Shown: positions 23,158 through 62,494, numbered from the stretch's first letter. The stretch: DNA of 64,000 bases from a virus (IMGVR_UViG_3300005613_000006:96001-160000); one strand, 5' to 3'. Program-made: numbers and translations. Notes: generated from the letters alone by a model not told the origin.

Positions 23158-23267
23158 GGCGACTAGGTTCGGAAAGACGGCGTATGTTGCACCAGCATTC
23201 TAGGCGGGGAATTGAACCCCGAACAATTCTTTTATAGAGAACATGTAGTCTTATCCAGGCATTCGCC
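23158..23267 (-). ncRNA. Y RNA-like (Yrl) RNA 1
   Basis: GGCGAATG...GACTACATG / GTCTT...TAGTCGCC stem with internal T arm. Confidence 0.7.
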
Positions 23268-23269
23268 AG

Positions 23270-23342
23270 TGGTACATCGAGGAGTCGAACCTACGCACAA
23301 CTGCCTTATCAGGGCGGTTCGCACAACCGGCGCGCATGTACC
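23270..23342 (-). tRNA. tRNA-Ile(GAT)
   Basis: Cloverleaf. Confidence 0.8.
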
Positions 23343-23379
23343 ATAGTACGCACAACAGGTTGCACGTACTGTATAATAA

Positions 23380-24010
23380 ATAGTGCCTATCACAAGTTCT
23401 CGGCAAAATCCGCGAGTGACTGGAGGTTTAGTATAGCGACAGTATTTCATGTACTCCATCTGTGAACACGGTAGTGAACCGCTTCACCCGCTTTGTCCCT
23501 GTTGTTGGGCGCTACCCCTCGCAACAGCACGACACTAGAGTGACACCTGTTCTGGGGTTCTCTCAGTGTAGTTGCAAGCTACCCTTGAGTCACTCCACAC
23601 AATCCTGCCACCCTCGGGCGGTAGCCGGTCTGTGTCCCTTTCGGGTTGGCGGTCTCGCCTTTCGGCTTGACCCGTAGACACTTCCAGTTGTCACACCCGC
23701 ATTTTAGGGGTTACCCCCATTTCCCGAGACTTGTTTATCTATTGCATAAATAGTCTGTAATCCGGTACTTCTGATAAATACGGAAAATCCACTATTCCTT
23801 CCAGTAGTATTCCATGAAAGGCCATGACTCTTACGTTCCGGCTACTCGGGCATTTCGTGGCACCCATACCACTTATCACCCACGCTACACGTTCCGTTGC
23901 CTGGGGTGTAACCCAGCCGTCAGAAACACGCTCTCGCATATTGGTCGGCAAGCCGACCGCCGTTCGCCCCGGTTAGGCAGAACAGTTTGAAAACCCTGCG
24001 ACAAAGGGTT
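23380..24010 (-). ncRNA. large structured ncRNA candidate (GOLLD/ROOL-like)
   Basis: About 630 nt between tRNAs, no credible ORF, several GC stems with GAAA tetraloops. Confidence 0.5.
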
Positions 24011-24013
24011 TAG

Positions 24014-24084
24014 AGACAGCAGGGGGAATCGAACCCTCAAGTTACGGTGTTGCAGACCGCACGCCCGCCATGAGCATCACTGTC
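24014..24084 (-). tRNA. tRNA-Cys(GCA)
   Basis: Cloverleaf. Confidence 0.8.
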
Positions 24085-24113
24085 TTATTCTTTCAGGCAG
24101 CTTTGCTGCCCAG

Positions 24114-24184
24114 TACGGGTACTCGGAATTGCACCGAGACCAACAGCTTGGAAGGCTGTCGTGCTGCTATTACACCACACCCGC
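24114..24184 (-). tRNA. tRNA-Gly(TCC)
   Basis: Cloverleaf. Confidence 0.88.
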
Positions 24185-24289
24185 ATATTGCCTACTTTCC
24201 AAGACCTAACACTGGATAAGGGTATTTCACCTTACCCAGGGTTTGCCCGAACATGCGTCGCTTATGTACCTTAGCGTAGAAAGTAAGAG

Positions 24290-24361
24290 TGGCTCCCTTC
24301 GGACTTGAACCGAAACCTAACGCCTTAAGAGGGCGCAATGCTACATTGACACCAGAGAGCC
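24290..24361 (-). tRNA. tRNA-Lys(CTT)
   Basis: Cloverleaf. Confidence 0.88.
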
Positions 24362-24946: not shown

Positions 24947-24947
24947 G

Positions 24948-25098: not shown

Positions 25099-25360
25099 AT
25101 ACGCACACGCTAAACTCTACGTCCCAATGGATTACGAACGCAAAACCGTGTGCGTCGATGGCATTCGCCATCCAAAGAGTCCTGACTGGTTCGCCTTCTG
25201 TGTTTATCCCTTGCAGCAACCCATAGGTGTCGCTTCAACTGCAAGGCCCAGTATCTCTCACCGTACATCTCAGGGCTGTTGCCAACCACGTTCGTCAGCT
25301 TACACCCAGGCTTTCGAGGCCCCCATCGGAAGACTACGGACTGCCGTTTTCTGGACTCAG

Positions 25361-25428
25361 TGGAGCGACGGGGACTCGAACCCCGCCTCCGACCGTGCAA
25401 AGGTCAGGTCTAGCCCTCTAGCCACCCC
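25361..25428 (-). tRNA. tRNA-Ala(TGC), reduced D arm
   Basis: G3:U70 pair, T arm. Confidence 0.8.
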
Positions 25429-25473
25429 TTTTTGCTCGTCGTACAAGGTATTATACACCGGGAATTCGGTTTG

Positions 25474-26103
25474 TCAACCAACTTTTTGAAGATTTTCATG
25501 GACAAACCAAGCATCCCAGCCAACTTCCCTCATCCAGGTGTATCCCTTATCCCTCAGAAAAGTGGTAATATCCTCCAAATACTTGCGGTCTCGCCCCTCA
25601 TGGCAGTTGTGTTCCACGGTGATAATTCCAAACACCCAGGTCCAGTCGTAGGATTTCAGAATGTCTAGCTCCGAGCCCTCTGTGTCGATGGACAGGTAGT
25701 TAACGTAGGAAGGAGCGCCGTGTTCGGCCAGGAGGTCATGTAACGTGACGCACGGAATCTCCACTTCCCTCCCAAACTGCTGTCTTTCTTTCTGATACGG
25801 CTGGTCGAGGTCAACAAACTCTGAAATGGTGGAGCAAACACCACCAGAAAAATCAACCTCGGTGAACTTCACGGTTCCGTTGTGGGTCCACACAGCCCGC
25901 TTGTCCCTCTTGCATGTACGCCCGAACTTGTCGTATTGTTCGTCGTTTATCAACGGGTCCACGCAAATTCCTTGCCACCCCGCCTCGTCTAACAAAAACG
26001 AGTTGCTGAAATGCTCCGCATGGCTTGCGCCGACCTCCACATAGAAGCCCTCGTTCCCTACTTTCTCCAACACGAACTTGTCCTGTCCTAACTGACTAGG
26101 CAT
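25474..26103 (-). CDS. FkbM-family methyltransferase
   Basis: SQLGQD, VEVGA, LSIDTEGSE. Confidence 0.88.
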   Translation of the reverse strand: MPSQLGQDKFVLEKVGNEGFYVEVGASHAEHFSNSFLLDEAGWQGICVDPLINDEQYDKFGRTCKRDKRAVWTHNGTVKFTEVDFSGGVCSTISEFVDLDQPYQKERQQFGREVEIPCVTLHDLLAEHGAPSYVNYLSIDTEGSELDILKSYDWTWVFGIITVEHNCHEGRDRKYLEDITTFLRDKGYTWMREVGWDAWFVHENLQKVG

Positions 26104-26719
26104 AACCCTTCTCCTTTAACCAAGGTCCAAAGGTGTCTTCAATCTGTTCTATCAACTTAGGGCTTAGAACTTCCTTGTAGTACCCAGGCACTCGCTTGGT
26201 GAAGTGTTGATGATGCAGCAAGTTCGTACTGTCATAGGTCGCGCTTGAATACTTGGAATGTTCCATGTCTTGCACAGCCCTCGCTATTGCCTGCGGTTCA
26301 CACCACAAGCCCATAACTTCGGCAATACTTTCAATCAACGAAACAGGCTCTCCTATCAGAAGTCGATACTCAAACTCGAACGTAGACAGGGGCCTGTAGT
26401 ATTCGTATCCCTCAACAGCGCTGTGTAATGCCCCTATTACATTGCTGGCGTTTACCCACTTCTTGAGCATGAGCGAGGCCGCAACGTCCCTCAAGTCGCG
26501 ATAGCAAGTAAAAATGACCGAACCCTCTACCAACTTAGGGGTCTTGTCATGCACCTTGATTACAGCCGCCTCAAAGTTTGCGCGCCAATCTGCCTGGAAA
26601 CTGGTGACGTATCCAACATGCACTGGGTCATAATGCTGCTCTGTCAACAGCCTCACGACGTTGTACAACCAAGTGCTGCCGCTTCGCGACATGCCAGCAC
26701 ATAGATACATTGGTTTCAT
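26096..26719 (-). CDS. sulfotransferase-like protein
   Basis: GMSRSGSTW (PAPS loop), RDLRDVAAS. Confidence 0.8.
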   Translation of the reverse strand: MKPMYLCAGMSRSGSTWLYNVVRLLTEQHYDPVHVGYVTSFQADWRANFEAAVIKVHDKTPKLVEGSVIFTCYRDLRDVAASLMLKKWVNASNVIGALHSAVEGYEYYRPLSTFEFEYRLLIGEPVSLIESIAEVMGLWCEPQAIARAVQDMEHSKYSSATYDSTNLLHHQHFTKRVPGYYKEVLSPKLIEQIEDTFGPWLKEKGYA

Positions 26720-26722
26720 AAG

Positions 26723-26795
26723 TACCCCGAGCAGGACTCGAACCTGCGGTCTTCGGATTAGGAATCCGCTGCGTTATCCTCTACGCCACCGGGGC
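26723..26795 (-). tRNA. tRNA-Arg(CCT)
   Basis: Cloverleaf. Confidence 0.92.
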
Positions 26796-27033
26796 GTTGG
26801 TTTTTCAGAAGTTCTTTCATCTGTCTGTCTGCTTCCAGAGACATAACAAGGTCTACCGCGCTCTGGTAGATTTCATCTCCATACGTCTTACGAAGTATGT
26901 CATGCAAAATTCCACCGGCCTTGCCGAGAAATTCGGCATGAGTCCACATACTGGTCCCGCCGTTGTTGTCGATAACATGCGTCTTAGTTACCGTCAGCGT
27001 TCCGTGTTTCGTGTGCCAAATCTGTGGTTTCAT
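26758..27033 (-). CDS. hypothetical protein
   Basis: ORF overlapping tRNA 5' end. Confidence 0.5.
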   Translation of the reverse strand: MKPQIWHTKHGTLTVTKTHVIDNNGGTSMWTHAEFLGKAGGILHDILRKTYGDEIYQSAVDLVMSLEADRQMKELLKNQRPGGVEDNAADS

Positions 27034-27868
27034 TTTGCAACATCCTGAGAATGTGGTTATACGTTGCTTCTAGTGTGAAGTATTCCGGCCACACTTCTCT
27101 CACCCTCTCTTGCTTGCGAGCAATGTCGGCGCTGGTATGACTCCTCAATATGTCAGGCAGCCTGTCAATATCATCTATGTGACATTGAACACTGAACTCG
27201 CACCAATTCAAAACGTCAGCGTAAGGAAGCCATAACACATCGTAGATGTAAACTGGTATAGCTCCGTAGGCCAGTGCCTCGCATATACGAAATGAAGTTC
27301 TTCCATATCCGCGTGGGCACAGCGCGAAAATACACTTGCCCATTCTGTGCAAGGGGTCATGCTTAGTATCTTTGATGGAGAAATCTGAGAGCCCCTTCAA
27401 CGCCTCGTTCATGCGCCCCCGAACACCAGTCCGGTTGTTAGGAGGGTTTTTGATATGTCCAGCAAAGTAAGCAAATACATCTCGGTCTCCTTTAACCGGG
27501 ACGGTAACGATGTTGTACGTCAGAGGAATCGGTATATCCCCTTTGCCACCAGCTCCAAAAACCAACAAGTTTTCTGGGGGCTCCTCATACAAACCATCAT
27601 CGGCTTGTACTATAGTGAACGATGGTTCTGTGACCTGTTCGTTCATAAACTTTTGAAGTTCTCGACTGTACTCCTTGTTGGACCCAGGCCCAATGCCATA
27701 CTTGCAGTACACATGTGTCCAAAAGATTGGTAAGTAGTGACGCCGAATGTTGTCGGGCGGATTGTTCAGCCATCGCTCGTAGAAATAGTCTTCTATCTTT
27801 GGACCCACCTTTGGGTATCCTCGACACATACGAGACAATTCACGAAATCTGCCCAATGTATCAATCAT
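26984..27868 (-). CDS. exostosin-like (GT47) glycosyltransferase
   Basis: FALCPRGYGRTSFRICEALAYGAIPV. Confidence 0.88.
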   Translation of the reverse strand: MIDTLGRFRELSRMCRGYPKVGPKIEDYFYERWLNNPPDNIRRHYLPIFWTHVYCKYGIGPGSNKEYSRELQKFMNEQVTEPSFTIVQADDGLYEEPPENLLVFGAGGKGDIPIPLTYNIVTVPVKGDRDVFAYFAGHIKNPPNNRTGVRGRMNEALKGLSDFSIKDTKHDPLHRMGKCIFALCPRGYGRTSFRICEALAYGAIPVYIYDVLWLPYADVLNWCEFSVQCHIDDIDRLPDILRSHTSADIARKQERVREVWPEYFTLEATYNHILRMLQNETTDLAHETRNADGN

Positions 27869-27870
27869 AG

Positions 27871-28193
27871 TAATCTCCTATAGCCGGGATTCTGTGGTAG
27901 CTACGCTACCGCTCAACATTTATCTTAGCACCTACCCGAGCATCATCGGCCTGTTCATCGCCTAGCTCTGTTTGGCTTGCACCCTCGGTAGTGCAGTCGG
28001 ATGCTGGATGGCGTAACAAGAACATTTCTTTAGCAGCTTCTTCGTCGTACCCCCCTCCGAAACAATCGTCAAAAGAGTCTTCCAACATGTCAGCAAGTTT
28101 ACATCTTGATAATGCCATCAGCATCCTCCTACCTTAAACAGTGGTGTCCTGAGCTTCCTGTAGGGCTACGCCCCACCGTTGAGCCAGAGATTA
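27871..28193 (-). ncRNA. rnpB: minimal RNase P RNA
   Basis: P1 TAATCTCT/GGAGATTA, P2 GCTCAAC/GTTGAGC, P3, CR-I AGGAAGCTCAGGAC, P5/P6/P7, P15 GGGTAGGTGCT, CR-IV AGATAAATG, CR-V ACAGAATCCCGGCTA. Confidence 0.85.
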
Positions 28194-28499
28194 TCTGCGT
28201 GGTTGTGCCTGTTGTCTGTACTGCCACTTCCACCATCGCGCTCTCGCATACGGTCTCCAAACTGGTGGCGCGTATGGATAGCGTGGTACTACCTGTGGTG
28301 GCACCGGCCCAGGCTGGTAGAGCCAGGGTCGAATCCACGGACGGTATGGGTATGGGGCCACGTATGGCTGCGCGTATGGCTGGCCGTAGTATGGTCCCGG
28401 CTGTGGGCCTTGCGGAGCCTGTGGCTCTTGTGCGTCAACAACGCCACATAGCCCAATGCAAAGCAGCACGGCTGCTACGATTGCTAGAATGTTTTTCAT
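28191..28499 (-). CDS. small secreted Pro/Tyr-rich protein
   Basis: Signal peptide, PY repeats. Confidence 0.6.
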   Translation of the reverse strand: MKNILAIVAAVLLCIGLCGVVDAQEPQAPQGPQPGPYYGQPYAQPYVAPYPYRPWIRPWLYQPGPVPPQVVPRYPYAPPVWRPYARARWWKWQYRQQAQPRR

Positions 28500-28711
28500 G
28501 GGTTCTTACTCCGTTCAAACTGTGTAATACAATCTTCTATTGTCGGTCCTATAAAGCTACGCACTTCTGCGCATTGATATGTGCCATCTGGTCGCCTAAT
28601 AGGTTTAGGCAGATTGCGCCAGATGCGCAACATCATATCGTTTCCTTGGGTCGGTGGGTCGTAGAAGATTCCCCACGACCATCCTTTTGGTACTTGTATC
28701 TTGATACTCAT
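28496..28711 (-). CDS. hypothetical protein
   Basis: ORF. Confidence 0.5.
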   Translation of the reverse strand: MSIKIQVPKGWSWGIFYDPPTQGNDMMLRIWRNLPKPIRRPDGTYQCAEVRSFIGPTIEDCITQFERSKNP

Positions 28712-28713
28712 AG

Positions 28714-28797
<84 letters not shown>

Positions 28798-28799
28798 AT

Positions 28800-29414
28800 T
28801 CACTTCGCTCTAACTAGATTGTCAATATCTCCATGTTTCCCAGGCAAAATGTAGATTACACCACGACGCCTACCAATAGCTTTGTCGTTATAATAGTGTG
28901 TGAAATTTTCTCCATAAATACCAACAACACTATCTCTGATATAGTGCCAATCTAAGCGACACTGCTTTTGTGCGCGAGGACATCTGTGTGCATCAAAGCC
29001 AAATCCACGGTATGGATTATGTATATCGTGTATTACTATAACTGAGTTGTCTTCTTTGTGCTTAGCAATCACATCTAGTTCATCTAACAAGGGCCAATCT
29101 GTTCGGTCGTGTGCGTCCAAGTAAAACAAAACAGGACGCTGGGTCTTCTCGTCAGACAAGATTTGCCCCAAAACAAATTGAGATGAGCCATGTTCAGCAT
29201 TGATGTTTTTATGGCCAAGGTCGTTGAAAAACTTTTGGGCCTCACAAAAATATCCCCTGTGCTTTTCAATGGTACACACCACAGGAACCATCTTTGCTAA
29301 GGCAACTGCGGTATGTCCTTTATCAGTTCCAGTTTCAACAATAGTTTGAATATCGAACTGGCAAACTAGCTTTTCAATGCTGTATCCTATGTGTGTGTCA
29401 TCTTCAAATGCCAT
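28800..29414 (-). CDS. SAM-dependent methyltransferase-like protein
   Basis: VETGT, FYLDAH, VIHD. Confidence 0.75.
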   Translation of the reverse strand: MAFEDDTHIGYSIEKLVCQFDIQTIVETGTDKGHTAVALAKMVPVVCTIEKHRGYFCEAQKFFNDLGHKNINAEHGSSQFVLGQILSDEKTQRPVLFYLDAHDRTDWPLLDELDVIAKHKEDNSVIVIHDIHNPYRGFGFDAHRCPRAQKQCRLDWHYIRDSVVGIYGENFTHYYNDKAIGRRRGVIYILPGKHGDIDNLVRAK

Positions 29415-29607
29415 TTTGCGGCCCTTCTTTGATTGTATAATTAGAGATTTTTGTACACGAAATAAACTCGCGAACTTGTTCTAGTGTGAGTTGGTAGTCT
29501 TTGTTGTCGAGTCTTATTGATGTATTGACGCAATGAGGACACCTACACTGACATGCTGAACACACCTCAAACTTCATGTTGGGAATAACGCACATTGCAA
29601 TCTCCAA
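29404..29607 (-). pseudogene. truncated radical SAM N-terminus
   Basis: EVCSACQCRCPHC followed by early stop. Confidence 0.5.
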
Positions 29608-29611
29608 TCAG

Positions 29612-29686
29612 TGGGCCATACTGGATTTGAACCAGCGACTTCCGCGATGTCAACGCGACACTCTAACCGGACTGAGTTAACGGCCC
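29612..29686 (-). tRNA. tRNA-Val(GAC)
   Basis: Cloverleaf. Confidence 0.93.
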
Positions 29687-30489
29687 TACTGTACCCCTAA
29701 TATACTCTTACACCATTCTTTCCCGAAATGTGACCGGCAGAAGGCTCTCAGATTAGCCCCGTCTGGGCTCTGTCGCAGCCGTCCGAGCGTTTCTTTGGCA
29801 AATGAGGGGTTAATTACCTTGGAGCCCTGCGCTTTTAATAGAAGGGCTCTGGCGCGTTCACAGTGCCAGCGTATAAAAGTGGTCAACTCGGGGTCTTTAC
29901 CCCCCTCTAGCTGGGTAAGGACCAGAGCATAGTTGGTGAACTGAACCATCTTCTCAAGGTCGTGCCCGTAGCTCCGGTCGCCTCGTCGTAGCAATCCCTT
30001 CTCTTCCAGGTCAAGTATCGCAGCCACTCCGTTGGTGTACGACACCCATTCATCCAACACATACAGAGGCTCGTTGTTCCAATACTGCGTCTGTTGTCTA
30101 AGGTACAGGTTGTATCCATTCCCTCGTAGTGAAGCCGGAACCTTTCCAGCTATCTGATTCAGTGTCATCTGAGGATGCGTCAACACACAAAGACGACCCT
30201 TCAAAACGTAGAGACAGGCTTTGCCTTGGAAATACTGCCTCCATTTACTGTTCAATCCATGTGTTGTTTCGTGTGTCCAGGTAATCTGGTCGCTGTCGGT
30301 ATAGATATGCCCGCGCGGCATCCGACTCTCTACGTCCCCAAGGACGGCCCCGAGATTCTCCGAAACTTTCCGGCTCGGTTCTATATTATACCAGCCCGTT
30401 TGCTTTTGTCCAGTGGCTCCTACGAAAATAAAGCCAAGTAGAACTAGGAGCAACAATGCTCCAAGATAGGTTGTACGGCGTTCTCCCAT
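29686..30489 (-). CDS. exported protein, putative zincin metallopeptidase
   Basis: Signal/TM segment; HETTH and downstream DEW. Confidence 0.6.
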   Translation of the reverse strand: MGERRTTYLGALLLLVLLGFIFVGATGQKQTGWYNIEPSRKVSENLGAVLGDVESRMPRGHIYTDSDQITWTHETTHGLNSKWRQYFQGKACLYVLKGRLCVLTHPQMTLNQIAGKVPASLRGNGYNLYLRQQTQYWNNEPLYVLDEWVSYTNGVAAILDLEEKGLLRRGDRSYGHDLEKMVQFTNYALVLTQLEGGKDPELTTFIRWHCERARALLLKAQGSKVINPSFAKETLGRLRQSPDGANLRAFCRSHFGKEWCKSILGVQ

Positions 30490-31532
30490 GAAAATGTCTC
30501 CGCTATGTCGATGCCCCGCTCATTGGGGGCAAGTTCTCTCTCCTGCTTTTGCCTATGTAGCTCCCTCATGTGAACTACCAACTGCTCAATCTCGGCCTCT
30601 CCTAGCTCGGCCCAGTTTCCACCACCACCCTTGAAGAATACTCCATCGAACGCTTCTTCTTTGTTGGGGGTATCTATACATCGACATACAGAGTCATCAA
30701 TGAAATCCATGTGTGCTGTGTTGAACGTGGCGATAGCATTCTTGCCACACGCCAGCATTTCCAGCAACTCCAAGTTCCAACCTTCGGCGCGAGCGGGCCA
30801 CACGCCCACATCAGCCTCTCGCATCTTCTTCGCTATGTCTACCTGTGTGCGTTGGCGTGGGAATATCTGAACCTTGCCAGCCCGGCCCATCTTGGACTTC
30901 ATGTACATGTCTTCCCACTCTGCCGTTTGCTCCTTGGTCAGGAACGGATTGCTGGGAATCATCCACAGTCGCACTCGGTCCTTGGGTTCAAATGCCCTGT
31001 TGAAGGCGTCAATCAGAACGTCGTGTCCCTTCCGAACCTCCCACTTCCCTATATTCAAAAACACCGTGTATGAGTACGGGTTCAATTCTGCCGGGAAGAA
31101 GATGGAGCGGTCCACGCCGAGCCCAGTGGTCACCACCAACGGGCAGTCGTCGCCAAGTTCGTTGCATACCGTATCAAACGCCCAGTTAGAACACACGAAC
31201 AACACATCCTGGTTACGTAGATGATGCTTCTCTTCATCGGTGAACTGGTCTAGCTCAAAGATGGGGAAGACACATCGCTTGCCAGTCCCACAGTGGTGGG
31301 CGAGGTCGTGCTGATGCCAGATTCTCAGGCTGTTGCCCTCGGGATAGAACGGTCGGTCCAAGCAGCGTTGCACCAGGGCAACGTCCTCTTGTGGGGGGTC
31401 AGTCTTGATACCATGAAAGACCGGCAAGTAAGACGGCTTCTTACCAGCCTTCACCAGTTGCTTCAAGACGTTCAGTCCAACTATGCCGTAGCCTAGCTGG
31501 TTAATCGGCGCTGTTAGGTTTATCATCGCCAT
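30444..31532 (-). CDS. GT4-like glycosyltransferase
   Basis: GKWEVRKG, EGWNLELLE. Confidence 0.88.
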   Translation of the reverse strand: MAMINLTAPINQLGYGIVGLNVLKQLVKAGKKPSYLPVFHGIKTDPPQEDVALVQRCLDRPFYPEGNSLRIWHQHDLAHHCGTGKRCVFPIFELDQFTDEEKHHLRNQDVLFVCSNWAFDTVCNELGDDCPLVVTTGLGVDRSIFFPAELNPYSYTVFLNIGKWEVRKGHDVLIDAFNRAFEPKDRVRLWMIPSNPFLTKEQTAEWEDMYMKSKMGRAGKVQIFPRQRTQVDIAKKMREADVGVWPARAEGWNLELLEMLACGKNAIATFNTAHMDFIDDSVCRCIDTPNKEEAFDGVFFKGGGGNWAELGEAEIEQLVVHMRELHRQKQERELAPNERGIDIAETFSWENAVQPILEHCCS

Positions 31533-31836
31533 CCTGCCTTGCCTCCTCTATCCTTTTGCGTGTAAAATCCAACGCCATTCGTTCTGCCAGCGACAAGCCG
31601 ACAACCTCGGCCAGAATCGTGAGTTCTTCTAGCGTACTCTCTGAGTCTAATCCAAAGTCATGCATATCACCCTTGGTTATTGCTTCCTCGCCCTCACCGG
31701 CCTTGGCAGCAAACTTCTTCGGACCCTCAATGACGATACCTTGTTTGATGGCCTTCTTCTTCGCGCCTGGGCCAGTGTAACACTTGCCTTCTTTGCCCCA
31801 GCGCCAGCCACCCTCTCCGCATCTCTGTAATGGCAT
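31501..31836 (-). CDS. hypothetical phage protein
   Basis: WRWGKEGKCYTG. Confidence 0.6.
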   Translation of the reverse strand: MPLQRCGEGGWRWGKEGKCYTGPGAKKKAIKQGIVIEGPKKFAAKAGEGEEAITKGDMHDFGLDSESTLEELTILAEVVGLSLAERMALDFTRKRIEEARQDGDDKPNSAD

Positions 31837-31837
31837 G

Positions 31838-32659
31838 TTATGCCTCCTCTTGTTTCAGTACGATTCTCTTGATGCCACCCATGTACTCAGCCACTTCGCT
31901 GAAACTACTTGGGCCTGCCAGGATGTATTGGCATCTGCTAAGCAAGTGCATTTCTACAGCGGCATCTTGAACAGGCAAATCATTGTCCGTGCGAAAGTCA
32001 GAACAGCCGTAGTGAATCACTCTGCCTGGATACTTTGCCTTGAAGCTATTAATGACGGCTGGACCGTTGGTTGCTAGGAGTATCGGTCTGTCTTCGTCTT
32101 GCAGGGCTTCGTGATACTGGTCTTCGTTTACCCATCTGTCCTTCCACTGTGGCCTACCAATATCTCCACGTCGGACATGAACCCCGACACACTCTCTGAG
32201 CGGATAGGTTTCAGCAAACCCTCTTACCTTGTCAACAATGTAGGGGTGCCACTGCATCTTGTTTTTCAAGATAGCTCCGTACTTCTTGCGGAAGTGGCGG
32301 CGCTTGCCTCCTACCTCGTCTTCGTCGCCCAGGTAACCCCAACACCAGATATTGTACACAACAACATCAACATCAACAAACTGTTCTCTCAACACGGTCG
32401 AATTGGTAATCTCTGATACGGGCCAGCCCTCATACTTCTTGGTGAAGTAATCCAAGGCCCCGTCTTTGTGTGCCGACTCGTAGACCGAGAAGCCGTTGTT
32501 GATAAACAGAGAGTTGAATGCGGCTCCCATCTTGTTGTAGCGGGTCCAGTATATGTCAAGGTAGCGGTCGAGGTCTTGTGCAATATGAATGCTGGTTGCC
32601 AGTGAACGCAAGCGATTACCCAAGCCCCCCTTTGCTACATATCCTAGAACTTTCTTCAT
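31838..32659 (-). CDS. fucosyltransferase-like (GT11/NodZ clan)
   Basis: GGLGNRL, GVHVRRGD, SSFS. Confidence 0.85.
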   Translation of the reverse strand: MKKVLGYVAKGGLGNRLRSLATSIHIAQDLDRYLDIYWTRYNKMGAAFNSLFINNGFSVYESAHKDGALDYFTKKYEGWPVSEITNSTVLREQFVDVDVVVYNIWCWGYLGDEDEVGGKRRHFRKKYGAILKNKMQWHPYIVDKVRGFAETYPLRECVGVHVRRGDIGRPQWKDRWVNEDQYHEALQDEDRPILLATNGPAVINSFKAKYPGRVIHYGCSDFRTDNDLPVQDAAVEMHLLSRCQYILAGPSSFSEVAEYMGGIKRIVLKQEEA

Positions 32660-33717
32660 GTGTCTTCCTCGCGATTGACAAAGAACTCTTTCACCCACTG
32701 TTTGAACGCCTGACCGTCTTTGGACAGCTTGTACAAACCGTTGGCCTTCTTCGTCAAGTCCCTTGTCGGGTCAAAGTCTAGCTCGCGAAACTTGAGTAGT
32801 CTGGTGCCATGTTGTCGAGCATCGCGAGAGCCATGATACAGGTGAAACACTTCCCCTTCAACATGGGCAAAACTGTGTCGAATGTAGCGTTGGCATTCTT
32901 CGGCCCAGGAGTAGTACATCCTACTGTGGGTGCCGCTATACTCTTGCTTGGCGTTAAGTTGTTCCTCTATCACCATCTTGGCTATCAACATATCTCCGCT
33001 GCCGATAACACACGTATCCAATAGTCCCCCTATCCGCAGAAGCACGTCTTTTCTAAACGCACAGGCATAACCTGGGTGGCCATACTCGGCATCTTGGCCA
33101 TAGATGCGGTCCACATACTCTTTTATGAAGCCCTTGATTTCATCACAGTCTCCAGTGTGTGCTGGAATATCGGTCAGCCCTGGCGGCATTCGGTAGCCAT
33201 AGCTATACGGTTGTACAACCATGTAGCTGTGCAATAGCTCTGACGTTTGCTCAACCCAATCATCTTGCTGGAACATCACGTCGCAGTCTACCCAACACAC
33301 CTTGTCACAGTCTTCGGGTAGGTGTTGCACACCGATATTCAGCAACGCCTCTTTTTGCCAGAGTATCTCGTCGTCGTCAGTAATCTGTAAGAGGTTGTGT
33401 GGCCTAAGATACTTCTGCAAGCGAAGCTGCTCTGGTCGCCCCGCCAATTCTACAATCAGGGTATCGGGACACTGCGTAATAAACCTATCGTAGAAACGCA
33501 GGAAGTTCGTCAGTCTACTATCAAAACCCATAGGATTGAAGTAACAACTAACACCCCACAATGACCCACGGGATTCAGTCGGAATCCTTGTGGGCATCCT
33601 TGGTGTCCAATCTTTTATCGAAACAGGAGCCTCTTTGACTGGCGCTGTCTGTCGCTTTGGCTTTGGCCCACTAGGTTTCTTTGCTTTAGCTGTGATGTTC
33701 GTGATGCGCATTGGCAT
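32656..33717 (-). CDS. GT-A fold glycosyltransferase-like
   Basis: WQKEALLN, WVDCDV, FHLYHG. Confidence 0.75.
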   Translation of the reverse strand: MPMRITNITAKAKKPSGPKPKRQTAPVKEAPVSIKDWTPRMPTRIPTESRGSLWGVSCYFNPMGFDSRLTNFLRFYDRFITQCPDTLIVELAGRPEQLRLQKYLRPHNLLQITDDDEILWQKEALLNIGVQHLPEDCDKVCWVDCDVMFQQDDWVEQTSELLHSYMVVQPYSYGYRMPPGLTDIPAHTGDCDEIKGFIKEYVDRIYGQDAEYGHPGYACAFRKDVLLRIGGLLDTCVIGSGDMLIAKMVIEEQLNAKQEYSGTHSRMYYSWAEECQRYIRHSFAHVEGEVFHLYHGSRDARQHGTRLLKFRELDFDPTRDLTKKANGLYKLSKDGQAFKQWVKEFFVNREEDT

Positions 33718-34369
33718 TGCTATATTTCTCGTATGCGCGGGTTAGTTTTTTCGGTCCTTTAAGGTCATGGATTGATACTGCGTCTACTTCTGTATCAAAG
33801 TGTTCAACGGTGTTAAAATGATGGCACCCAGGTAAGTGCGTTGGGAAAATTTCTAACTTAGACAACATATCAGACAACCAACAGTCTTCATGGAATGTGA
33901 TTTCTAAAGCAGGCAGACGACGCAAAAAAGTTGTCAGCTTGTGCAAACACGAACGACTCAAAAAAACCGCCCCTCCTCCAATCCATTTGATGGGTTGGCG
34001 ACTAGACCCAAAATGCTTGATGACGTTATCAATGTCTCCCATATACAAAGGCTCATCTATGTCATATTGAGACAGAGCCTTTAACATGGCGTCAACAAAT
34101 AGGCATGAATCATCATCAACCTTTACAAACCACTTCTTATCACCATGATAAGCTCTCATATATTGAAGTGTCATAAAGGTCTTTATGCTTAATTGGTTCC
34201 GGTAAATCACTCCTAGATTGATGCAGTTTGGCAAATCCGAACAGTTTTCGTCCGATATGAAGTAGACATTTGACAATCCCCGTGCCCATGTGTCGCGTAT
34301 AGCCAAGGCCAATTTACGTCGTTTCTTACACGTACTAACGTAGATTACAACATCGTCTATGGTTAACAT
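33686..34369 (-). CDS. GT31/Fringe-like glycosyltransferase
   Basis: WFVKVDDD, GGGAVFLS, HED. Confidence 0.85.
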   Translation of the reverse strand: MLTIDDVVIYVSTCKKRRKLALAIRDTWARGLSNVYFISDENCSDLPNCINLGVIYRNQLSIKTFMTLQYMRAYHGDKKWFVKVDDDSCLFVDAMLKALSQYDIDEPLYMGDIDNVIKHFGSSRQPIKWIGGGAVFLSRSCLHKLTTFLRRLPALEITFHEDCWLSDMLSKLEIFPTHLPGCHHFNTVEHFDTEVDAVSIHDLKGPKKLTRAYEKYSNANAHHEHHS

Positions 34370-34385
34370 TTGTTCTCCCCTCAAG

Positions 34386-34466
34386 CGGAAGGCAAGGGAC
34401 TCGAACCCTCAACCCTTTCGGGCACCCCGGTTCCAACGGGGCTCCTAGCCAATTCGGATACCTTCC
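34386..34466 (-). tRNA. tRNA-Ser(GGA)
   Basis: Cloverleaf. Confidence 0.9.
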
Positions 34467-34504
34467 AGTTCCCGTTCGGACATATCTTACTTCTTATGGG
34501 GGGT

Positions 34505-34882
34505 CTAAGTGTTGCAAAATGATGCAATTTCAGACCTGATATTCCCGTTCGGGTCAATGGCAACAAGGCACCCATCAATCTCAGCACGGCGTCTGATTCC
34601 TAACAAAGAATAGATTGCCAGCAAAATCTCGATGAAATCCTGACGGCGGGTGACGGTCCACTCATAGAGTGGCTTGTGGTTACGGTCAGGGTCTCCTTCA
34701 ACAGGGCCTCGAATATGCCCTATGTCGAACATCATACAACGTCTTACCACATCCTCGTCGGTCATTCGGATACGAAAAAACACTTTGTTTTTACCGATGT
34801 AACCTTCACCCTCCGCTAAACCAGCTAGCCATGCTAGATTGATGGGTGTCCAATGCTGCTTGTCAATGTGTCGATATTTCAT
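34505..34882 (-). CDS. single-motif LAGLIDADG endonuclease
   Basis: WLAGLAEGEG, MTDEDVV. Confidence 0.8.
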   Translation of the reverse strand: MKYRHIDKQHWTPINLAWLAGLAEGEGYIGKNKVFFRIRMTDEDVVRRCMMFDIGHIRGPVEGDPDRNHKPLYEWTVTRRQDFIEILLAIYSLLGIRRRAEIDGCLVAIDPNGNIRSEIASFCNT

Positions 34883-34937
34883 GGCGTATTCCTCCTAGAG
34901 ATTATACACCAAATGTTACCGCACAGTGACATTTCAG

Positions 34938-35363: not shown

Positions 35364-35437
35364 AACACAAACTCCTTCTTCAAAAAAGTAATGAGAGATG
35401 CAGCGCCAAGCTGCACCGAACTAAAGTAAGGACTGAT

Positions 35438-36286: not shown

Positions 36287-36299
36287 AATTCCCTCCAAG

Positions 36300-41130: not shown

Positions 41131-41238
41131 GGTGACGAGTAGAATGCAGGACGATGGGAACCTTCTTCCCTTACTTATGAGGAGTCGAACCTCATCAAAA
41201 CAATTTGGAGTTTCATGTAGTCCTAGCTTGCATTCACC
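41131..41238 (-). ncRNA. Y RNA-like RNA 2
   Basis: GGTGAATG...GGACTACATG / GTCCT...CGTCACC; T arm TGAGG-TTCGACT-CCTCA. Confidence 0.7.
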
Positions 41239-41249
41239 CTTTGTCTTAG

Positions 41250-41321
41250 TGGAGCCGAGGGGAATCGAACCCCCAGTCTGCTGGCTGCCAGCCAGATATG
41301 TTCCCGTTACACCACAGCCCC
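41250..41321 (-). tRNA. tRNA-Ala(GGC)
   Basis: Cloverleaf. Confidence 0.9.
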
Positions 41322-44056: not shown

Positions 44057-44188
44057 GGCGACAAGGGGTAAAAGGACTAGTTTTACGCGCTCTGCCAGTT
44101 AAGCTACCCCCTGTCGAAGTCAGGGGAGTGGGACTCGGACCCACATCTTCGGGTTATCAAGACCATGTAATCCTAAACGTCATTCGCC
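44057..44188 (-). ncRNA. YrlA-like Y RNA with permuted tRNA module
   Basis: GGCGAATG...GGATTACATG / GTCCT...TTGTCGCC enclosing T arm, looped acceptor stem (TCCCCTG/CAGGGGG) and D arm. Confidence 0.85.
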
Positions 44189-50300: not shown

Positions 50301-50440
50301 ATCGTAGCCCGTAACGTGGGCTAATCGGGGGACGACTCAAGAGCCGCCTTCACCACCAACTTTTGACAGAAGTTGGAAACTGGGAGGGTAGCCGAAGCCA
50401 CTCCCACCGCCACCAGTTCTTTATGGAAACTGGAAACCAG

Positions 50441-50513
50441 CGACCCTAGCGGGAATTGAACCCGCGTCGAGAGGTTGAAAGCCTCACATCCTAGTCCACT
50501 AGAAGATAGGGCC
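50441..50513 (-). tRNA. tRNA-Glu(TTC)
   Basis: Cloverleaf. Confidence 0.92.
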
Positions 50514-50652: not shown

Positions 50653-51063
50653 ATGTTTTTTCACTCTGTCAATCAATTTCTGAGGGACTTCCACTATACC
50701 CTCTTCAACTTCCGCATGGTAGTTGCTACAGACTAAGATGCACTTCCTAGCTTCTGCTAATGCTCTGTCCCAACCTCGGGTCTGCCCTCCCATTGACAAT
50801 CCAAACTCTTTTGTCTCTGGAAAAACGTGATGAAACCCCAACGCCCGCTCACATTTATCATAGCCACATAGTTCGCATTGTCCCCCAAAGTGTTTAACCA
50901 GCTTCGGCTTGAGATTCTTGCGATACCGAGCAACCTTTTCCACCCGACACTTCTTGCAACGAAAGGTGCTTCCCTCTGCCACATGCTCAGTCAGGCCGTG
51001 CTTCTTACATTGGAAAAAAGGCGACAAGTTAGTTGGCCGACATTTCTTGATATTTGGAATCAT
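50638..51063 (-). CDS. small HNH endonuclease (C-to-Y change in CxNC motif)
   Basis: ALGFHHV...KCILVCSNYH. Confidence 0.8.
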   Translation of the reverse strand: MIPNIKKCRPTNLSPFFQCKKHGLTEHVAEGSTFRCKKCRVEKVARYRKNLKPKLVKHFGGQCELCGYDKCERALGFHHVFPETKEFGLSMGGQTRGWDRALAEARKCILVCSNYHAEVEEGIVEVPQKLIDRVKKHTGLV

Positions 51064-51085
51064 GTAGTCGTGCCTTGCATTCGCC
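51020..51085 (-). ncRNA. minimal Y RNA-like RNA 4
   Basis: GGCGAATG...CGACTACATG / GTCG...TTGTCGCC followed by U-tract; starts 5 nt after TATAAT. Confidence 0.65.
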
Positions 51086-51090
51086 GTTAT

Positions 51091-51118
51091 ATTATAGCCT
51101 GAGAATTGGTTTTGTCAA
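51091..51118 (-). promoter_or_regulatory. sigma70 promoter TTGACA-N16-TATAAT
   Basis: Perfect consensus hexamers. Confidence 0.85.
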
Positions 51119-51162: not shown

Positions 51163-51190
51163 ATTATACACCGCAAATCGCTGTTGTCAA
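51163..51190 (-). promoter_or_regulatory. promoter TTGACA-N16-TATAAT including the GGTG extension
   Basis: Perfect consensus hexamers. Confidence 0.85.
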
Positions 51191-54655: not shown

Positions 54656-54900
54656 AGTCTCTCTCTTTGAGGTAGGAGTCAGTGGACGGCGCGGGAATTG
54701 AACCCGCGTCCTGCGATACCTCCAAAGCAAACGTCTACGTGTGTAGTTTGTTGTTAGGCTGCACAACAAACAAAGCTGTCTCGATGGTGGATATGCCTCT
54801 TGTTTTTTTAGGCACAAGAATAAGCCGTCCCGCGCTTGCCGTTAGGCTGCGCAGGCCAGAATGCCGTTATACTCGGCAGTTAAATTTGGTAGTCGATTTT

Positions 54901-55395
54901 TTATACACGATTCGCTTTTAAGTATTGGATTGCATTTTGTAGCAGGGCAATATCGTCCTGTAAAAAACCAATCCCGCGATTGCATTTGTTACACAACAGA
55001 CCTCGTATTTGTCCAGTCTGGTGGCAATGGTCTATTGCTAGTTTGCAATCTTTACCATGTCCAACTTCAACTCCACAGATTTGACATTGTTCACCGAATT
55101 TTGAAACAAGTTCTTCATATTGCGCAAGCGACTGAGCATCTAAGTGTATGCAATGATTACATTGATACTTGCCGTTGCTCAATAATTGTGGAAAGTTTGA
55201 CAATGGTAATAGTTTGCCACAGTTTTTACATGTGGCCTTGCCGTTTTTTGTATTCTTGGTTTTCGGTTTGTGCAAACCAAGATTAACGGCTTTGTAACGC
55301 AAGGTGGTATAGTTCATGCCAAGCTGACGAGCAGCTTTTCTTAAAGACATTCCACTTTTCACCAAGTTTACAATCTGTTGTTCAACTTCGGTCAT
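54901..55395 (-). CDS. endonuclease VII-type HNH with N-terminal HTH
   Basis: LAIDHCHQTGQIRGLLCNKCNRGIG; own promoter and SD. Confidence 0.92.
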   Translation of the reverse strand: MTEVEQQIVNLVKSGMSLRKAARQLGMNYTTLRYKAVNLGLHKPKTKNTKNGKATCKNCGKLLPLSNFPQLLSNGKYQCNHCIHLDAQSLAQYEELVSKFGEQCQICGVEVGHGKDCKLAIDHCHQTGQIRGLLCNKCNRGIGFLQDDIALLQNAIQYLKANRV

Positions 55396-59490: not shown

Positions 59491-60022
59491 AGTTGTCAGG
59501 ACACATGATATGCTTCCGGCGCTTGTCTACTTTGACGCCAGCCGAGGCTACTCGCAGCCGCGTTCGCGGCCTGGGTATCGACGGGTCGATAGATTCGCGG
59601 ATACTGACGTTGGGTAGCCCGTTGAGTCGATATAAGGCCCCTACGAGGTCCACACTGCGCGTTGTGGTGCGGAATAGGACTTCGGGGCAGGCTCGCGCGA
59701 TTCTAAACCACTTGTTGACGTATGGCTCAGAGTAGAAGTCCCCGCTCACATGAATACGAAAGTAGCGAACGCCACTCTTCTTGATTTCAGCTATCATGCG
59801 GGTTTCAAAGTCGCTTTGCTTGCTTGCCTCGTACCGGCGCTCGAAAGATGCTACGACATTGGGCCACGTTAGCCGCCCACGTAACGCATAGCAGCGAGGC
59901 TTACCAGCTTTGCCCTTCAAACACCACTTGGACGGCCTACAAGTCTTGACTGGCGGCAGACTAAACGTAGCGACGTTCGGCCCCATTTTCTGGTTGCCGA
60001 TTCCAATGAGTTTGTTTGACAT
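59426..60022 (-). CDS. Gp88-like (radical-SAM-related) phage protein
   Basis: FSLPPVKTC...CYA, RIHVSGDFY. Confidence 0.75.
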   Translation of the reverse strand: MSNKLIGIGNQKMGPNVATFSLPPVKTCRPSKWCLKGKAGKPRCYALRGRLTWPNVVASFERRYEASKQSDFETRMIAEIKKSGVRYFRIHVSGDFYSEPYVNKWFRIARACPEVLFRTTTRSVDLVGALYRLNGLPNVSIRESIDPSIPRPRTRLRVASAGVKVDKRRKHIMCPDNCEVCGHRCWEEMDKDEIFEEF

Positions 60023-60035
60023 GACTTCCTCTCAT

Positions 60036-60076
60036 AAAAAAGACCCTACGGCATCAACCACAGACACCGTAGGGCC
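60036..60076 (-). terminator. intrinsic terminator
   Basis: CCCTACGG/CCGTAGGG hairpin followed by T-run. Confidence 0.65.
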
Positions 60077-60173
60077 GTTCTCCGAACCTCATCACGGGAG
60101 ATTACCATGCGCAACCACGGTGTTCACCTATGCTTCAAAAAAACGATGTTTCTCAAAATCCAACTGACCACTT

Positions 60174-60506
60174 TTAGTTGTCGGCTTCATGGTGTAGTTT
60201 GGCGTGGCAGTTTAAGCAGTACACGTCACACTTCGCTATCTCAGCAAGGATACGTTCGATGCTGAAACACCTATTTACCATTACTGCGATTCCCATTTCC
60301 TTTTGAGCCGGGTCTCGATGGTGAAAGCACAAGCACGCTGGATGGTTTTCGCCACATTCCTTACATTGCTTGTCTTTCTTGTATTCTCTCAACCACGCCC
60401 ACTTCTTTTTCCTCAGTTTGGCTTTATTGGTGGCGTAGTTGGTCTTGTTGGCCTCATAGTGCTTCTTGCTTAATTCTCGGCGCTTCTCAGGGTCTTTGTA
60501 TGGCAT
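60174..60506 (-). CDS. small HNH endonuclease
   Basis: CLCFHHRD...KCDVYCLNCH. Confidence 0.88.
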   Translation of the reverse strand: MPYKDPEKRRELSKKHYEANKTNYATNKAKLRKKKWAWLREYKKDKQCKECGENHPACLCFHHRDPAQKEMGIAVMVNRCFSIERILAEIAKCDVYCLNCHAKLHHEADN

Positions 60507-60589
60507 CGGAGCCTCCTGATTTGGGGTACACTACATTATACACCAAATCAGACTGCAAAGAAGTCTTGAACCCCTAAGTTTCTAAAAAG

Positions 60590-60664
60590 GCCCGCCGAAA
60601 GGGTGTCGAACCCCTCACCACGACTCGCGCGTTGTGGTGGTGTGTCCACGCTACACTCGACGGT
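60590..60664 (-). ncRNA. tRNA-like RNA
   Basis: CCGTCGA/TCGGCGG acceptor, T arm, 15-nt central loop. Confidence 0.45.
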
Positions 60665-60766
60665 TGTGACACTAGGGAAGACGTGCGCCCGCCTCCCCTA
60701 GTGTTTGATTCACTGCGCTTGTCCAGCTATTCCAAAAAAAGCGATTCAATTACGCAAAGCATTAAA

Positions 60767-60866
60767 GACGACAAAACGATGCTGGGAAGTGTGCTTAAAC
60801 CTCCTTCGGTTTTGCTGGATTCGCGACTCTTTTCGTCATTTGCATGTAATCCCAACTACATTCGCC
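60767..60866 (-). ncRNA. Y RNA-like RNA 5, immediately downstream of Ro60
   Basis: GGCGAATG...GGGATTACATG / TTCCC...TTGTCGTC. Confidence 0.72.
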
Positions 60867-60922
60867 TGCCCGCTACCCTGGTCGGCTTGAATCTACCGGC
60901 CAGGGCGACAATATGCGGGCGA

Positions 60923-62494
60923 TTAGTCTCCTGAGTAGTTTTCCACGATGGAAACAAAGTCTTCGCCGCTTTCACGGTTGAAGAAGTCGTCCATCACGGT
61001 GAATACGGCATCGCTGAAACCACCCACGTTCAACACAACGCCTTCGCGTTCTGGTGTCTGCGTGGTAGTGTTTGGCGTAATGTCGATGTTCACCAACTTA
61101 CTCTTTGGGTTTCTACTGTGGAACTCAGTCCACTCTTGGGCCGTACCGCCTCGACCACCATGACGACCAAACCAACTTTCGTTGTCCGATACGTAGATGA
61201 TGTTCTCAGCCTTGGCTCTTGTGTTGTTCAAGTGTCGTAGTGGAACCGAGCAGTCGGTTCCCCCACCACCAAAGCTGCGCAAGGTCTGCGCATTGGTCAT
61301 AACACTGTCAAACGGGTTCAAGTGTGCATTGTACAAACGGTTGTCGAATGGCATGATGCTGGCGTTCTTGTTTTGACGGAGTACGCACACTGCGAACAGG
61401 GCGGCTACGTCAACACACTTGGTAACGCTGTACGAACCAGTACGACGGCCCATTGCAACCCAACTCATTGAGCTTGACACGTCCACACCAACCACAGTGC
61501 GGCCTCGGAAGGTCGGCACGTTTTCCGTAGCAATTTCCATAGCTTCCTGCAAGGCGTTACTGATACGGCTGTCGATGGTCACGTTTTGGTACGTGGTCAA
61601 CAGTTGGTATGGGAAGACGTTGCACTGGCGAACCAATTCTGGATTGGCCAACTTCGCGGCCACTTCGTCCACAAATGCGCTGCTACCGAACACACCACGC
61701 TTTTCGAGCATGTTCAAGTTCATACGCAAAGTGTTCCAGGGCATGTTGCGAGCAATGTCACGCCATGCGTTGACACCCAACTTCAAGTTCGTCAAAGCGC
61801 GAAATGGAACGTCTGGGATTTCGTACTCATCTGGCACGTCACCCATTTCCTTCAACGCTTCAAACTGTTGAATGTCTTCTGGTAGGTACTGGTAGTTTTC
61901 GTCGCTCAACTTACCAATCAAGTACGAGAACATAGCTTGCTGTTCTCTACCCACTGGACGTGGGTGTACCATCTTGATAGCATCGGCAAGCGACGGGTTG
62001 CTGTGACCTACGCTGGCGATGTACAGCTTGTACGCACTGCGGTCTTGCAGCCATCGCTGGATGCAACGCTTTACGGCAGTACCAAAGCTACGTCGGCCAA
62101 CGGCACCACTACGAATCAAGTGCATGAAGTTCAACAGCATCTTGCTGTTGTTACACACACGATTGAAGATGGTCTTGACCAACTCGGTTTCGCCTCTGGC
62201 GGCTAGAGTAGCCAACAGGTAAGCAGGAACGTCCTTCATTCGACCAACCTCACGGCTGTAGACCGCTAGCTTGGCCAAAAACTCTGACGAACATTCGTTT
62301 GCCAGCGCTTGGATTTCCTTGACTTGTTCACCGGCGCTGACATAGAAGGTGTTGCTGAACGTACCAGTTACGGCGTACTGTGCCAGGGCATGTTCGTTGG
62401 TCTTGCTGTACGCAAGGCCACCAGCGTGATTTCGCGTGTCTGGACGAGGCGTGTTACGCGAACGACAACGGTTTCTGAAAAGATTCTTGTTCAT
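60923..62494 (-). CDS. rsr: Ro60/Rsr TROVE-domain RNA-binding protein
   Basis: NHAGGLAY, TROVE core, vWA DVSSSM...GGGTD...SDNESW. Confidence 0.93.
   Translation of the reverse strand: MNKNLFRNRCRSRNTPRPDTRNHAGGLAYSKTNEHALAQYAVTGTFSNTFYVSAGEQVKEIQALANECSSEFLAKLAVYSREVGRMKDVPAYLLATLAARGETELVKTIFNRVCNNSKMLLNFMHLIRSGAVGRRSFGTAVKRCIQRWLQDRSAYKLYIASVGHSNPSLADAIKMVHPRPVGREQQAMFSYLIGKLSDENYQYLPEDIQQFEALKEMGDVPDEYEIPDVPFRALTNLKLGVNAWRDIARNMPWNTLRMNLNMLEKRGVFGSSAFVDEVAAKLANPELVRQCNVFPYQLLTTYQNVTIDSRISNALQEAMEIATENVPTFRGRTVVGVDVSSSMSWVAMGRRTGSYSVTKCVDVAALFAVCVLRQNKNASIMPFDNRLYNAHLNPFDSVMTNAQTLRSFGGGGTDCSVPLRHLNNTRAKAENIIYVSDNESWFGRHGGRGGTAQEWTEFHSRNPKSKLVNIDITPNTTTQTPEREGVVLNVGGFSDAVFTVMDDFFNRESGEDFVSIVENYSGD

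Follow-up and report, generated by a model that had tools for sequence, protein, structure and literature searches.

In the 64,000-nucleotide viral stretch IMGVR_UViG_3300005613_000006:96001-160000, a gene for a Ro60/Rsr protein is accompanied by five dispersed loci, whose ends form a common stem and whose interiors differ from one another. The question raised by this arrangement is whether the five loci encode Y RNAs of the phage Ro60, and what several such RNAs could do for a single protein. The stretch (called the window below) covers bases 96001-160000 of an IMG/VR virus record that has 172,878 bp and a completeness rating of 100%; the phage is uncultured. Our favoured answer, to which we give a probability of about 0.72, is that the five loci (Y1 to Y5) are YrlA-scaffold Y RNA genes whose products are partners of the phage's own Ro60, one common handle giving several particles by means of different heads. 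Ro60 binding, the processing routes, the head-specific partners and the biological outcome are inferred from the sequence.

The Ro60 gene and the five loci are listed here, with the evidence for each in brackets; R1 and R2 are the covariance models described below, and RF02553 is the YrlA family of Rfam.

60923..62518, minus strand: Ro60/Rsr orthologue with TROVE and Ro60-type vWA domains; the longest Open Reading Frame (ORF) has 531 amino acids and the database protein (P0001) 523
23158..23267, minus strand: Y1, handle, A/U-rich hairpin, T arm (CGGGG-UUCAAUU-CCCCG) and abutting hairpin, no D arm (R1, R2)
41131..41238, minus strand: Y2, handle with GGUGA/UCACC, hairpin, T arm (UGAGG-UUCGACU-CCUCA) and further hairpin, no D arm (R2, R1, fold)
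44057..44188, minus strand: Y3, handle, variable-arm-like hairpin, T arm, closed 7-bp acceptor-like stem and D arm, that is, a circularly permuted tRNA (RF02553, R2)
51020..51085, minus strand: Y4, minimal, handle only, with a 24-nt A-rich apical loop (R1, R2; fold z-score -2.6)
60767..60866, minus strand: Y5, handle and a non-tRNA head that consists of two or three small hairpins and lacks both T-arm and D-arm motifs (R1, R2, fold)

Ro60 and the shared handle

The window ORF has the features that define Ro60/Rsr, namely a TROVE domain, a C-terminal vWA domain and full-length matches to solved structures. In Pfam, PF25045 (vWA_Ro60) matches at 3.7e-21 and PF05731 (TROVE) at 1.5e-7. The structures matched over the full length are D. 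radiodurans Rsr (2NVO; 5.9e-23), human 9NEN, Xenopus 1YVP and 9KOP of Thermus phage phiLo (1.7e-10). Residues D346, S348 and S350 are invariant and keep the DxSxS spacing across 25 homologues (alignment A1), and they probably constitute a MIDAS motif (adhesion site dependent on a metal ion). The nearest relatives by Ro60 are P0002 (84% identity) and P0003 (57%), and the nearest isolate is Myxococcus phage Mx1 (44%). A metagenome scan returned only one 2.7-kb fragment, which contains the N-terminal part of Ro60 and yielded no close Y5 orthologue, and a single-protein scan of viral contigs gave no matches.

The motif GAATG-N6-12-TACATG has five matches in the window, all on the minus strand and thus on the same strand as Ro60, while 0.26 matches are expected and none of 100 shuffles reaches five. 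The same five are the sole matches in the whole 172,878-bp genome. From Y1 to Y5, the spacers are 9, 8, 8, 8 and 7 nt, and the 3' ends are GUCGCC, GUCACC, GUCGCC, GUCGCC and GUCGUC. An earlier note on this DNA, made from the sequence alone, had described five loci with shared 5' and 3' motifs, and the motif scan and sequence reads found its coordinates, motifs, strand and spacers to be correct; the compensatory GGUGA/UCACC pair that it saw at 41131-41238 is also real in sequence and fold.

The loci were then searched for with covariance models made from phage elements, of which R1 recovers four of the five and R2 exactly five. R1 consists of nine minimal elements from other phages only (in-register seed A3); in a MAFFT alignment of 37 minimal elements (A2) the 3' strand of stem 2 was out of register and RNAalifold obtained stem 1 alone, so A3 was used. 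With default filters, R1 finds Y1 (23157-23268; 34.3 bits, E 5.4e-7), Y5 (60766-60867; 23.4 bits, E 6e-4) and Y4 (51019-51086; 20.6 bits, E 3.6e-3), and with filters off it adds Y2 as the fourth locus (41130-41239; 17 bits, E 0.036). R1 gives nothing else credible in the window, and no further copy elsewhere in the genome. R2 was made from 83 sequences matched by R1, two of them from the window. With filters off, it returns Y1 (47.2 bits, E 2e-11), Y5 (35.9 bits, E 4.7e-8), Y2 (33.9 bits, E 1.8e-7), Y4 (31.0 bits, E 1.4e-6) and Y3 (26.2 bits, E 3.7e-5) from the window, and the next match is at E 0.44.

All five loci fold with the 5' and 3' ends paired into a stem, and the order of the handle is the same in all of them. 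A terminal stem of 5-6 bp (..CGA/UCG..) is followed on the 5' side by AUG(C) and a second stem of 7-10 bp, which ends just before UACAUG. After the variable apical part come the return of stem 2, a strand of 7-12 nt ending in (C/U)U(N)G, and the return of stem 1. The internal loop between the two helices is therefore both conserved and asymmetric, with AUGC on the 5' side and ..CUUG on the 3' side.

In 1.03 Mb of phage loci together with the window, R1 gives 83 matches at E <=0.01; the window accounts for 2 of them, and the 81 from phage loci are without exception on the Ro60 strand. Standard pairs occupy 95.2% of the cells in the alignment of these 83 homologues (59% when shuffled, <=52% when slid), with stem 1 paired at 98.2% and stem 2 at 93.1%. 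Compensatory changes occur at 15 of 15 pairs (443 two-sided cells), and the covariation score is 0.93, compared with 0.22 for shuffled and <=0.115 for slid alignments; since the alignment was fitted to the model, its pairing and covariation figures are somewhat inflated, but they exceed the controls by a very wide margin, and the strand bias, which is total, owes nothing to the fit. UACAU and the G.U and G-C pairs beneath it are conserved even in headless members.

The handle can be placed in a known family. The 5' end is GGCGAAUG in Y1, Y3, Y4 and Y5, which fits GNCGAAN0-1G, a motif common to bacterial Y RNAs that overlaps the Rsr-binding site (Chen 2014, PMC4201824); Y2 begins with GGUGAAUG and has the compensating UCACC at its 3' side. 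Aligned to Y3, the Rfam YrlA consensus reads ggCgaAUGCuu-ggGgaaCUAc ... uucCcc-aaAaAcUuG-ucGcc, with two helices and an internal loop as in the handle. In 12 bacterial rsr loci scanned with Rfam, all YrlA matches above the gathering score (10 of 10) coincide with R2 matches. Because R2 coincides with all ten and the consensus is identical, the phage handle is taken to be the YrlA handle. By every sequence-level criterion, the five RNAs are Y RNAs.

The resemblance to YrlA that the earlier note proposed to look for in Rfam is partly seen there. Y3 aligns over the full model (positions 1-114; 26.8 bits, E 4.6e-4 on a 186-nt stretch), with high posteriors in all three arms, but it remains below the gathering threshold of 69 bits, which was reached neither in the window nor in seven related phage loci, and Y1, Y2, Y4 and Y5 have no RF02553 match even at E 10. 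Neither ARAGORN nor the Rfam tRNA model called any of the five loci a tRNA.

Relatives in phages and bacteria

For comparison, 53 IMG/VR loci, in which Ro60 is 37-52% identical, were retrieved with alignment A1. A structural regular-expression scan of these loci gave 146 matches, often in tandem beside Ro60, compared with 30 in reversed-sequence controls. The scan was not counted for covariation of stem 1, because pairing of stem 1 was its selection criterion; stem 2 was not required, yet it forms in essentially every candidate. The results on stem 2, strand bias and the covariance models are independent of this criterion.

All R2 matches in the phage loci (142 of 142) are on the Ro60 strand; 39 of 48 loci have matches, from 1 to 9 each, and 57% of the matches lie within 2 kb of Ro60, against 21% expected. 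From bacteria, 80 rsr loci were fetched (Pyrinomonadaceae, Verrucomicrobiota, Chthoniobacter flavus Ellin428, Alysiella crassa and others). R2 was run on 39 of them and gave 198 matches in 38 loci, all on the rsr strand, with about 5 per locus and up to 11. Multi-copy sets of handle RNAs (3-11) are the rule in this Ro60 clade, in phages as well as in bacteria.

This phage stands out by how widely its genes are scattered, four of the five being inside tRNA operons. Y5 is 56-57 nt downstream of Ro60, and the distances of the other loci are 9.8, 16.7, 19.7 and 37.7 kb. In each of five complete genomes of related phages there are 3-4 elements, within about 7 kb of Ro60, and bacterial Y RNAs in the literature are encoded on the same strand as the Ro60 gene, at most about 4 kb from it (PMC4201824).

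These distributions bear on whether the elements are related to Ro60 at all. They might instead punctuate the tRNA island, as terminators, as processing signals or as copies of a mobile element, which would suit the U-rich trailers after the 3' stems and the remoteness of four of the five loci from Ro60. We find this scarcely credible: the handle matches that of the Rsr-associated YrlA and carries GNCGAAN0-1G, and same-strand clusters stand beside Ro60 or rsr in about 77 loci. A mobile repeat was rejected because the copies are common in structure and not in sequence, and terminators were rejected because tandem arrays of up to 9-11 would make no sense for them; a reading as tRNA pseudogenes was also rejected. 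The central proposal of the earlier note, Ro60-associated Y RNAs with one shared stem and different modules, has good support from the covariation, the GNCGAAN0-1G motif, the identity with the YrlA consensus, the same-strand linkage to Ro60 in these loci, and the promoter-to-terminator unit of Y4 described below.

The heads found in genomes of the Ro60 clade are permuted tRNAs, non-permuted tRNAs, the top half of a tRNA (T arm and acceptor) and unrelated hairpins, and there are also headless RNAs of 56-72 nt. Among 147 phage elements, 62 are minimal (<=72 nt), 40 have another module, 26 have a permuted T-then-D order, 16 have only a T arm, 2 have a D-then-T order and 1 is mixed. The headless class is thus the commonest in phages, and it is not seen by the Rfam YrlA model. 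In bacteria there is a conserved class of about 98 nt, made of the handle, a T arm and an abutting closed acceptor-like hairpin without a D arm, which mimics the top half of a tRNA; examples are L080 7961-8058, L070 7586-7682 and L079 7011-7109. At L052 12089-12212 and L034 12233-12366 the handle bears a tRNA-like insert in non-permuted order, with a D arm, then an anticodon-arm-like hairpin and a T arm; the insert of the former is scored as a tRNA by Rfam (46.5 bits).

In four bacterial rsr loci (L104, L070, L088 and L065), a dense tRNA array with 11 to 22 tRNA matches within 5 kb lies directly upstream of rsr, and arrays of Y RNAs surround the gene; one of these loci, L070, belongs to a Pyrinomonadaceae chromosome of 5.4 Mb. 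An island of tRNA array, Ro60 and Y RNAs is therefore common to bacterial chromosomes and phages.

The cultured phage Mx1 contains two handle RNAs, at L001 8250-8373 and 8602-8703 (OR576727.2 45170-45293 and 45522-45623), in a tRNA region about 11.5 kb upstream of the Ro60 gene. The exact motif is absent from Mx1, though the covariance models find both elements. The second begins 3 nt after tRNA-Ile, and a hypothetical coding sequence of 40 amino acids annotated over it (WNM70101.1) is probably a mis-call.

Earlier work reported 355 YrlAs in 276 genomes, at least 2 Y RNAs per studied bacterium, and modular Y RNAs (PMC4201824, PMC12135203, 10.1101/312249). In a literature search, no description was found of large handle-RNA arrays or of the minimal class.

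Heads, gene context and possible roles

The genes in the window are almost all on the minus strand, including 38 tRNA genes (ARAGORN). Five features next to the Y RNA loci or Ro60 are needed here.

23269..23342, minus strand: tRNA-Ile(GAU), with its 3' end 1 nt before Y1 (ARAGORN)
41249..41321, minus strand: tRNA-Ala(GGC), ending 10 nt upstream of Y2 (ARAGORN; Rfam tRNA 56.8 bits)
51091..51118, minus strand: perfect sigma-70-type promoter, TTGACA-16-TATAAT (12/12), with the predicted +1 on the first G of Y4 or beside it
60867..60922, minus strand: spacer from the Ro60 stop to Y5 with a long G+C-rich hairpin, a candidate processing site (sequence read)
62560..62588, minus strand: promoter-like site 5' of Ro60, TTGACA-17-TATACT (11/12), a consensus match only and putative

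The internal modules are as the earlier note had claimed, with a permuted tRNA in Y3, a T arm of canonical form in Y1 and Y2, a non-tRNA module in Y5 and none in Y4; only Y3 has a permuted tRNA-like head. Their gene contexts also differ. Judged from the positions of the genes, tRNA-Ile and Y1 are likely to be co-transcribed with shared processing, and co-transcription is likely for tRNA-Ala and Y2 too, so that both RNAs would be cut from tRNA precursors. Y1 aligns with the element after tRNA-Ile in Mx1, stem 1 covaries between the two, and the order of tRNA-Ile then Y RNA is common to both phages. Y4 would be made from its own consensus promoter and end at a U-tract, since a run of six U (51014-51019) comes right after its 3' stem. 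The same unit of promoter and minimal RNA exists in the closest IMG/VR relative (L008 18121-18181), and promoters are so placed at 6 of 147 elements, compared with 26 of 5000 random positions. Family-wide, the stretch 3' of the elements is T-rich (T fraction about 0.5, background 0.24). Y5 may be derived from the 3' end of the Ro60 transcript.

Two further details of these loci were noticed. A second 12/12 sigma-70 consensus promoter is found at 51163-51190 (minus strand), 72 bp from the one proximal to Y4, and in the latter an inverted repeat, CTGAGAA ... TTCTCAG, brackets the -35 box and may be an operator. Y3 sits between two ORFs, and at 44180-44188 its conserved AUG is followed by A; the UGA so formed is the stop of the upstream 118-codon ORF (44180-44536), so the Y3 gene and the end of this ORF overlap.

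If the five RNAs act as Y RNAs, the handle would be the Ro60-binding module and a bound Y RNA would gate the Ro60 ring, and the head would dock a second factor, likely a host protein such as polynucleotide phosphorylase (PNPase). No RtcB, PolyA_pol/CCA-adding, RNase PH/PNPase or RNA ligase domain was found in the phage genome, so the effectors would be host proteins. The single-stranded A-rich loop of Y4 may suit KH/S1 domains, as described for Yrn1, and the T-arm and tRNA-like heads may suit tRNA-binding proteins. One ring protein could in this manner yield several particles that serve RNA decay or quality control in infected cells. The tethering of Ro60 to different partners, which the earlier note suggested, is the established Y RNA model (PMC4201824; 10.1101/312249), and its extension by analogy to this phage is plausible.

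The heads could also have a humbler use. The RNAs might bind Ro60 mainly as gates or sponges that keep the ring inactive or stabilised, with heads that serve biogenesis and stability and recruit no different effectors. Gating by Y RNA is described for D. radiodurans, where Rsr is active as the free protein (10.1101/312249), and the commonest class, 62 of 147, is headless. Moreover, 41 of 147 phage elements start within 15 nt of the 3' end of a same-strand tRNA, so the tRNA-like pieces could simply direct processing. However, distinct head classes exist in parallel in one genome and recur across phyla (the T-arm class of about 98 nt; permuted tRNAs in 26 of 147), which seems to be beyond what stability needs, and published Y RNA heads tether PNPase. 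We therefore consider a role as gates or sponges alone unlikely.

Another proposal of the earlier note, decoys for anticodon nucleases, is disfavoured by the structures. In its wider form, the tRNA-like members would be decoys or sensors for tRNA-targeting defences (anticodon nucleases, tRNA-modifying toxins) with Ro60 as a stabilising platform. The loci are within an island of 38 tRNA genes, and a common explanation of such islands is that they counter tRNA-directed defence; the inserts of the relatives L034 and L052 also carry the anticodon-arm-like hairpin. None of the five window RNAs, however, presents an anticodon loop, which makes the idea very unlikely for them: in the permuted design of Y3 the anticodon stem runs on into the Ro60 handle, and Y4 and Y5 have no tRNA feature at all. 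RNA repair genes are lacking in the phage as well.

Several points weigh against our favoured reading of the loci as Y RNA genes serving the phage Ro60. To the Rfam YrlA model only Y3 is visible, far below the gathering threshold, and its T loop has a C where tRNAs have U55. Which part of the handle would touch Ro60 is deduced only from analogy. The distances of four loci to Ro60, 10-38 kb, exceed both the published limit and that of the five complete relatives. In addition, when the five RNAs were compared by blastn with every fetched locus, nothing homologous to a head was seen beyond the T arm, the alignment of Y1 with Mx1 aside, so conservation of head function is conjectural.

Some other features of the window touch RNA processing or the tRNA island. 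A full-length match to the archaeal RNase P RNA model at 27870-28194 (minus strand) is sub-threshold (28.6 bits, gathering 84); it is relevant because M. smegmatis YrlA is reportedly cleaved by RNase P. A transfer-messenger RNA (tmRNA) match at 54690-54936 (minus strand) is also below threshold (36.3 bits, gathering 47, Rfam), and ARAGORN calls a tmRNA at 25360-25772 (minus strand) with the tag GGYYHFSEG*. The wcaG RNA (RF01761; 47 bits, gathering 42) at 50342-50441 (minus strand) is wedged between two tRNA genes. From 25474 to 37394 (minus strand), tRNA genes are interleaved with sugar-modifying genes, including FkbM methyltransferase, sulfotransferase, GT47 exostosin-like, GT4, Fringe-like and nucleotide-diphospho-sugar transferases.

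A broader idea, which we offer tentatively, is that the YrlA handle is a general display scaffold. Phages and bacteria would then keep libraries of 3-11 RNAs with swapped-in heads, each recruiting a different host factor, and here the library would be dispersed into tRNA operons, beside an RNase P-like RNA and tmRNA, and be made and processed together with the translation RNAs.

Two questions asked for bacterial Y RNAs are what the head binds and why organisms keep several (10.1101/312249). This phage and its relatives provide natural RNA sets with a constant Ro60 handle and differing heads, which are usable directly as partner baits, and Mx1, which is cultured and has two orthologous elements, is an experimental entry point. 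The published YrlA census misses most handle RNAs, because only tRNA-like members were counted; with a scaffold-only model the minimal, hairpin and T-arm-only classes are picked up too, for some 340 elements in about 77 loci. For annotation, such loci are currently unannotated or mis-called as small ORFs.

Comparison with known systems

The five RNAs are real Y RNAs of a known family, and what the phage has is a larger and dispersed form of an RNA-protein system already known rather than a new type. The metazoan Y RNAs (for example human Y1, Y3, Y4 and Y5) are likewise paralogues with a shared terminal Ro60-binding stem, a differing loop or effector module and U-rich 3' ends. However, they have no detectable sequence homology with the phage RNAs beyond the short GGUCCGA-like/CGAA motif, they are RNA polymerase III transcripts, and they have no tRNA-like heads.

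Bacterial and phage YrlA (RF02553; Chen 2014, PMC4201824; Wang 2018, 10.1101/312249) has the same handle, ..CGAAUGC../..CUUGUCG.. with GNCGAAN0-1G, and its genes are on the rsr/Ro60 strand. Y3 shares with it the permuted T arm, the closed acceptor stem and the D arm, but differs in a further 15-nt hairpin that precedes the T arm, in C at T-loop position 55 and in its score of only 26.8 bits. The other four phage loci have no tRNA-like core and are unseen by the Rfam model.

These four can be compared with the second bacterial Y RNAs (S. Typhimurium YrlB, M. smegmatis YrlB and D. radiodurans Yrn2), which are Ro60-bound, have the 5' motif and are not full tRNA mimics. M. smegmatis YrlB has a possible T arm, like Y1 and Y2; D. 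radiodurans Yrn2 is a long hairpin, and the hairpin forms resemble Y4 (PMC4201824). In the published cases there is one second Y RNA per genome, beside rsr, whereas four with three head types are found here. At 66 nt, Y4 also falls short of the published RNAs, which span 80 to about 220 nt, and in place of a small pyrimidine-rich loop it has an A-rich one.

A phage precedent is Thermus phage phiLo, with Ro60 and the RNAs Yrl1 and Yrl2 (PMC12135203; 9KOP, 9L5Y), in which a phage Ro60 likewise goes with phage RNAs that have the CGAA motif in a stem-bulge-stem. The phiLo Ro60 binds its two Y RNA-like RNAs and host PNPase in vitro, in a ternary complex (PMC12135203). In phiLo the genes for the two RNAs lie immediately upstream of the Ro60 gene, and the description of these RNAs mentions no tRNA-like heads, whereas the phage described here has five, scattered through a tRNA island.

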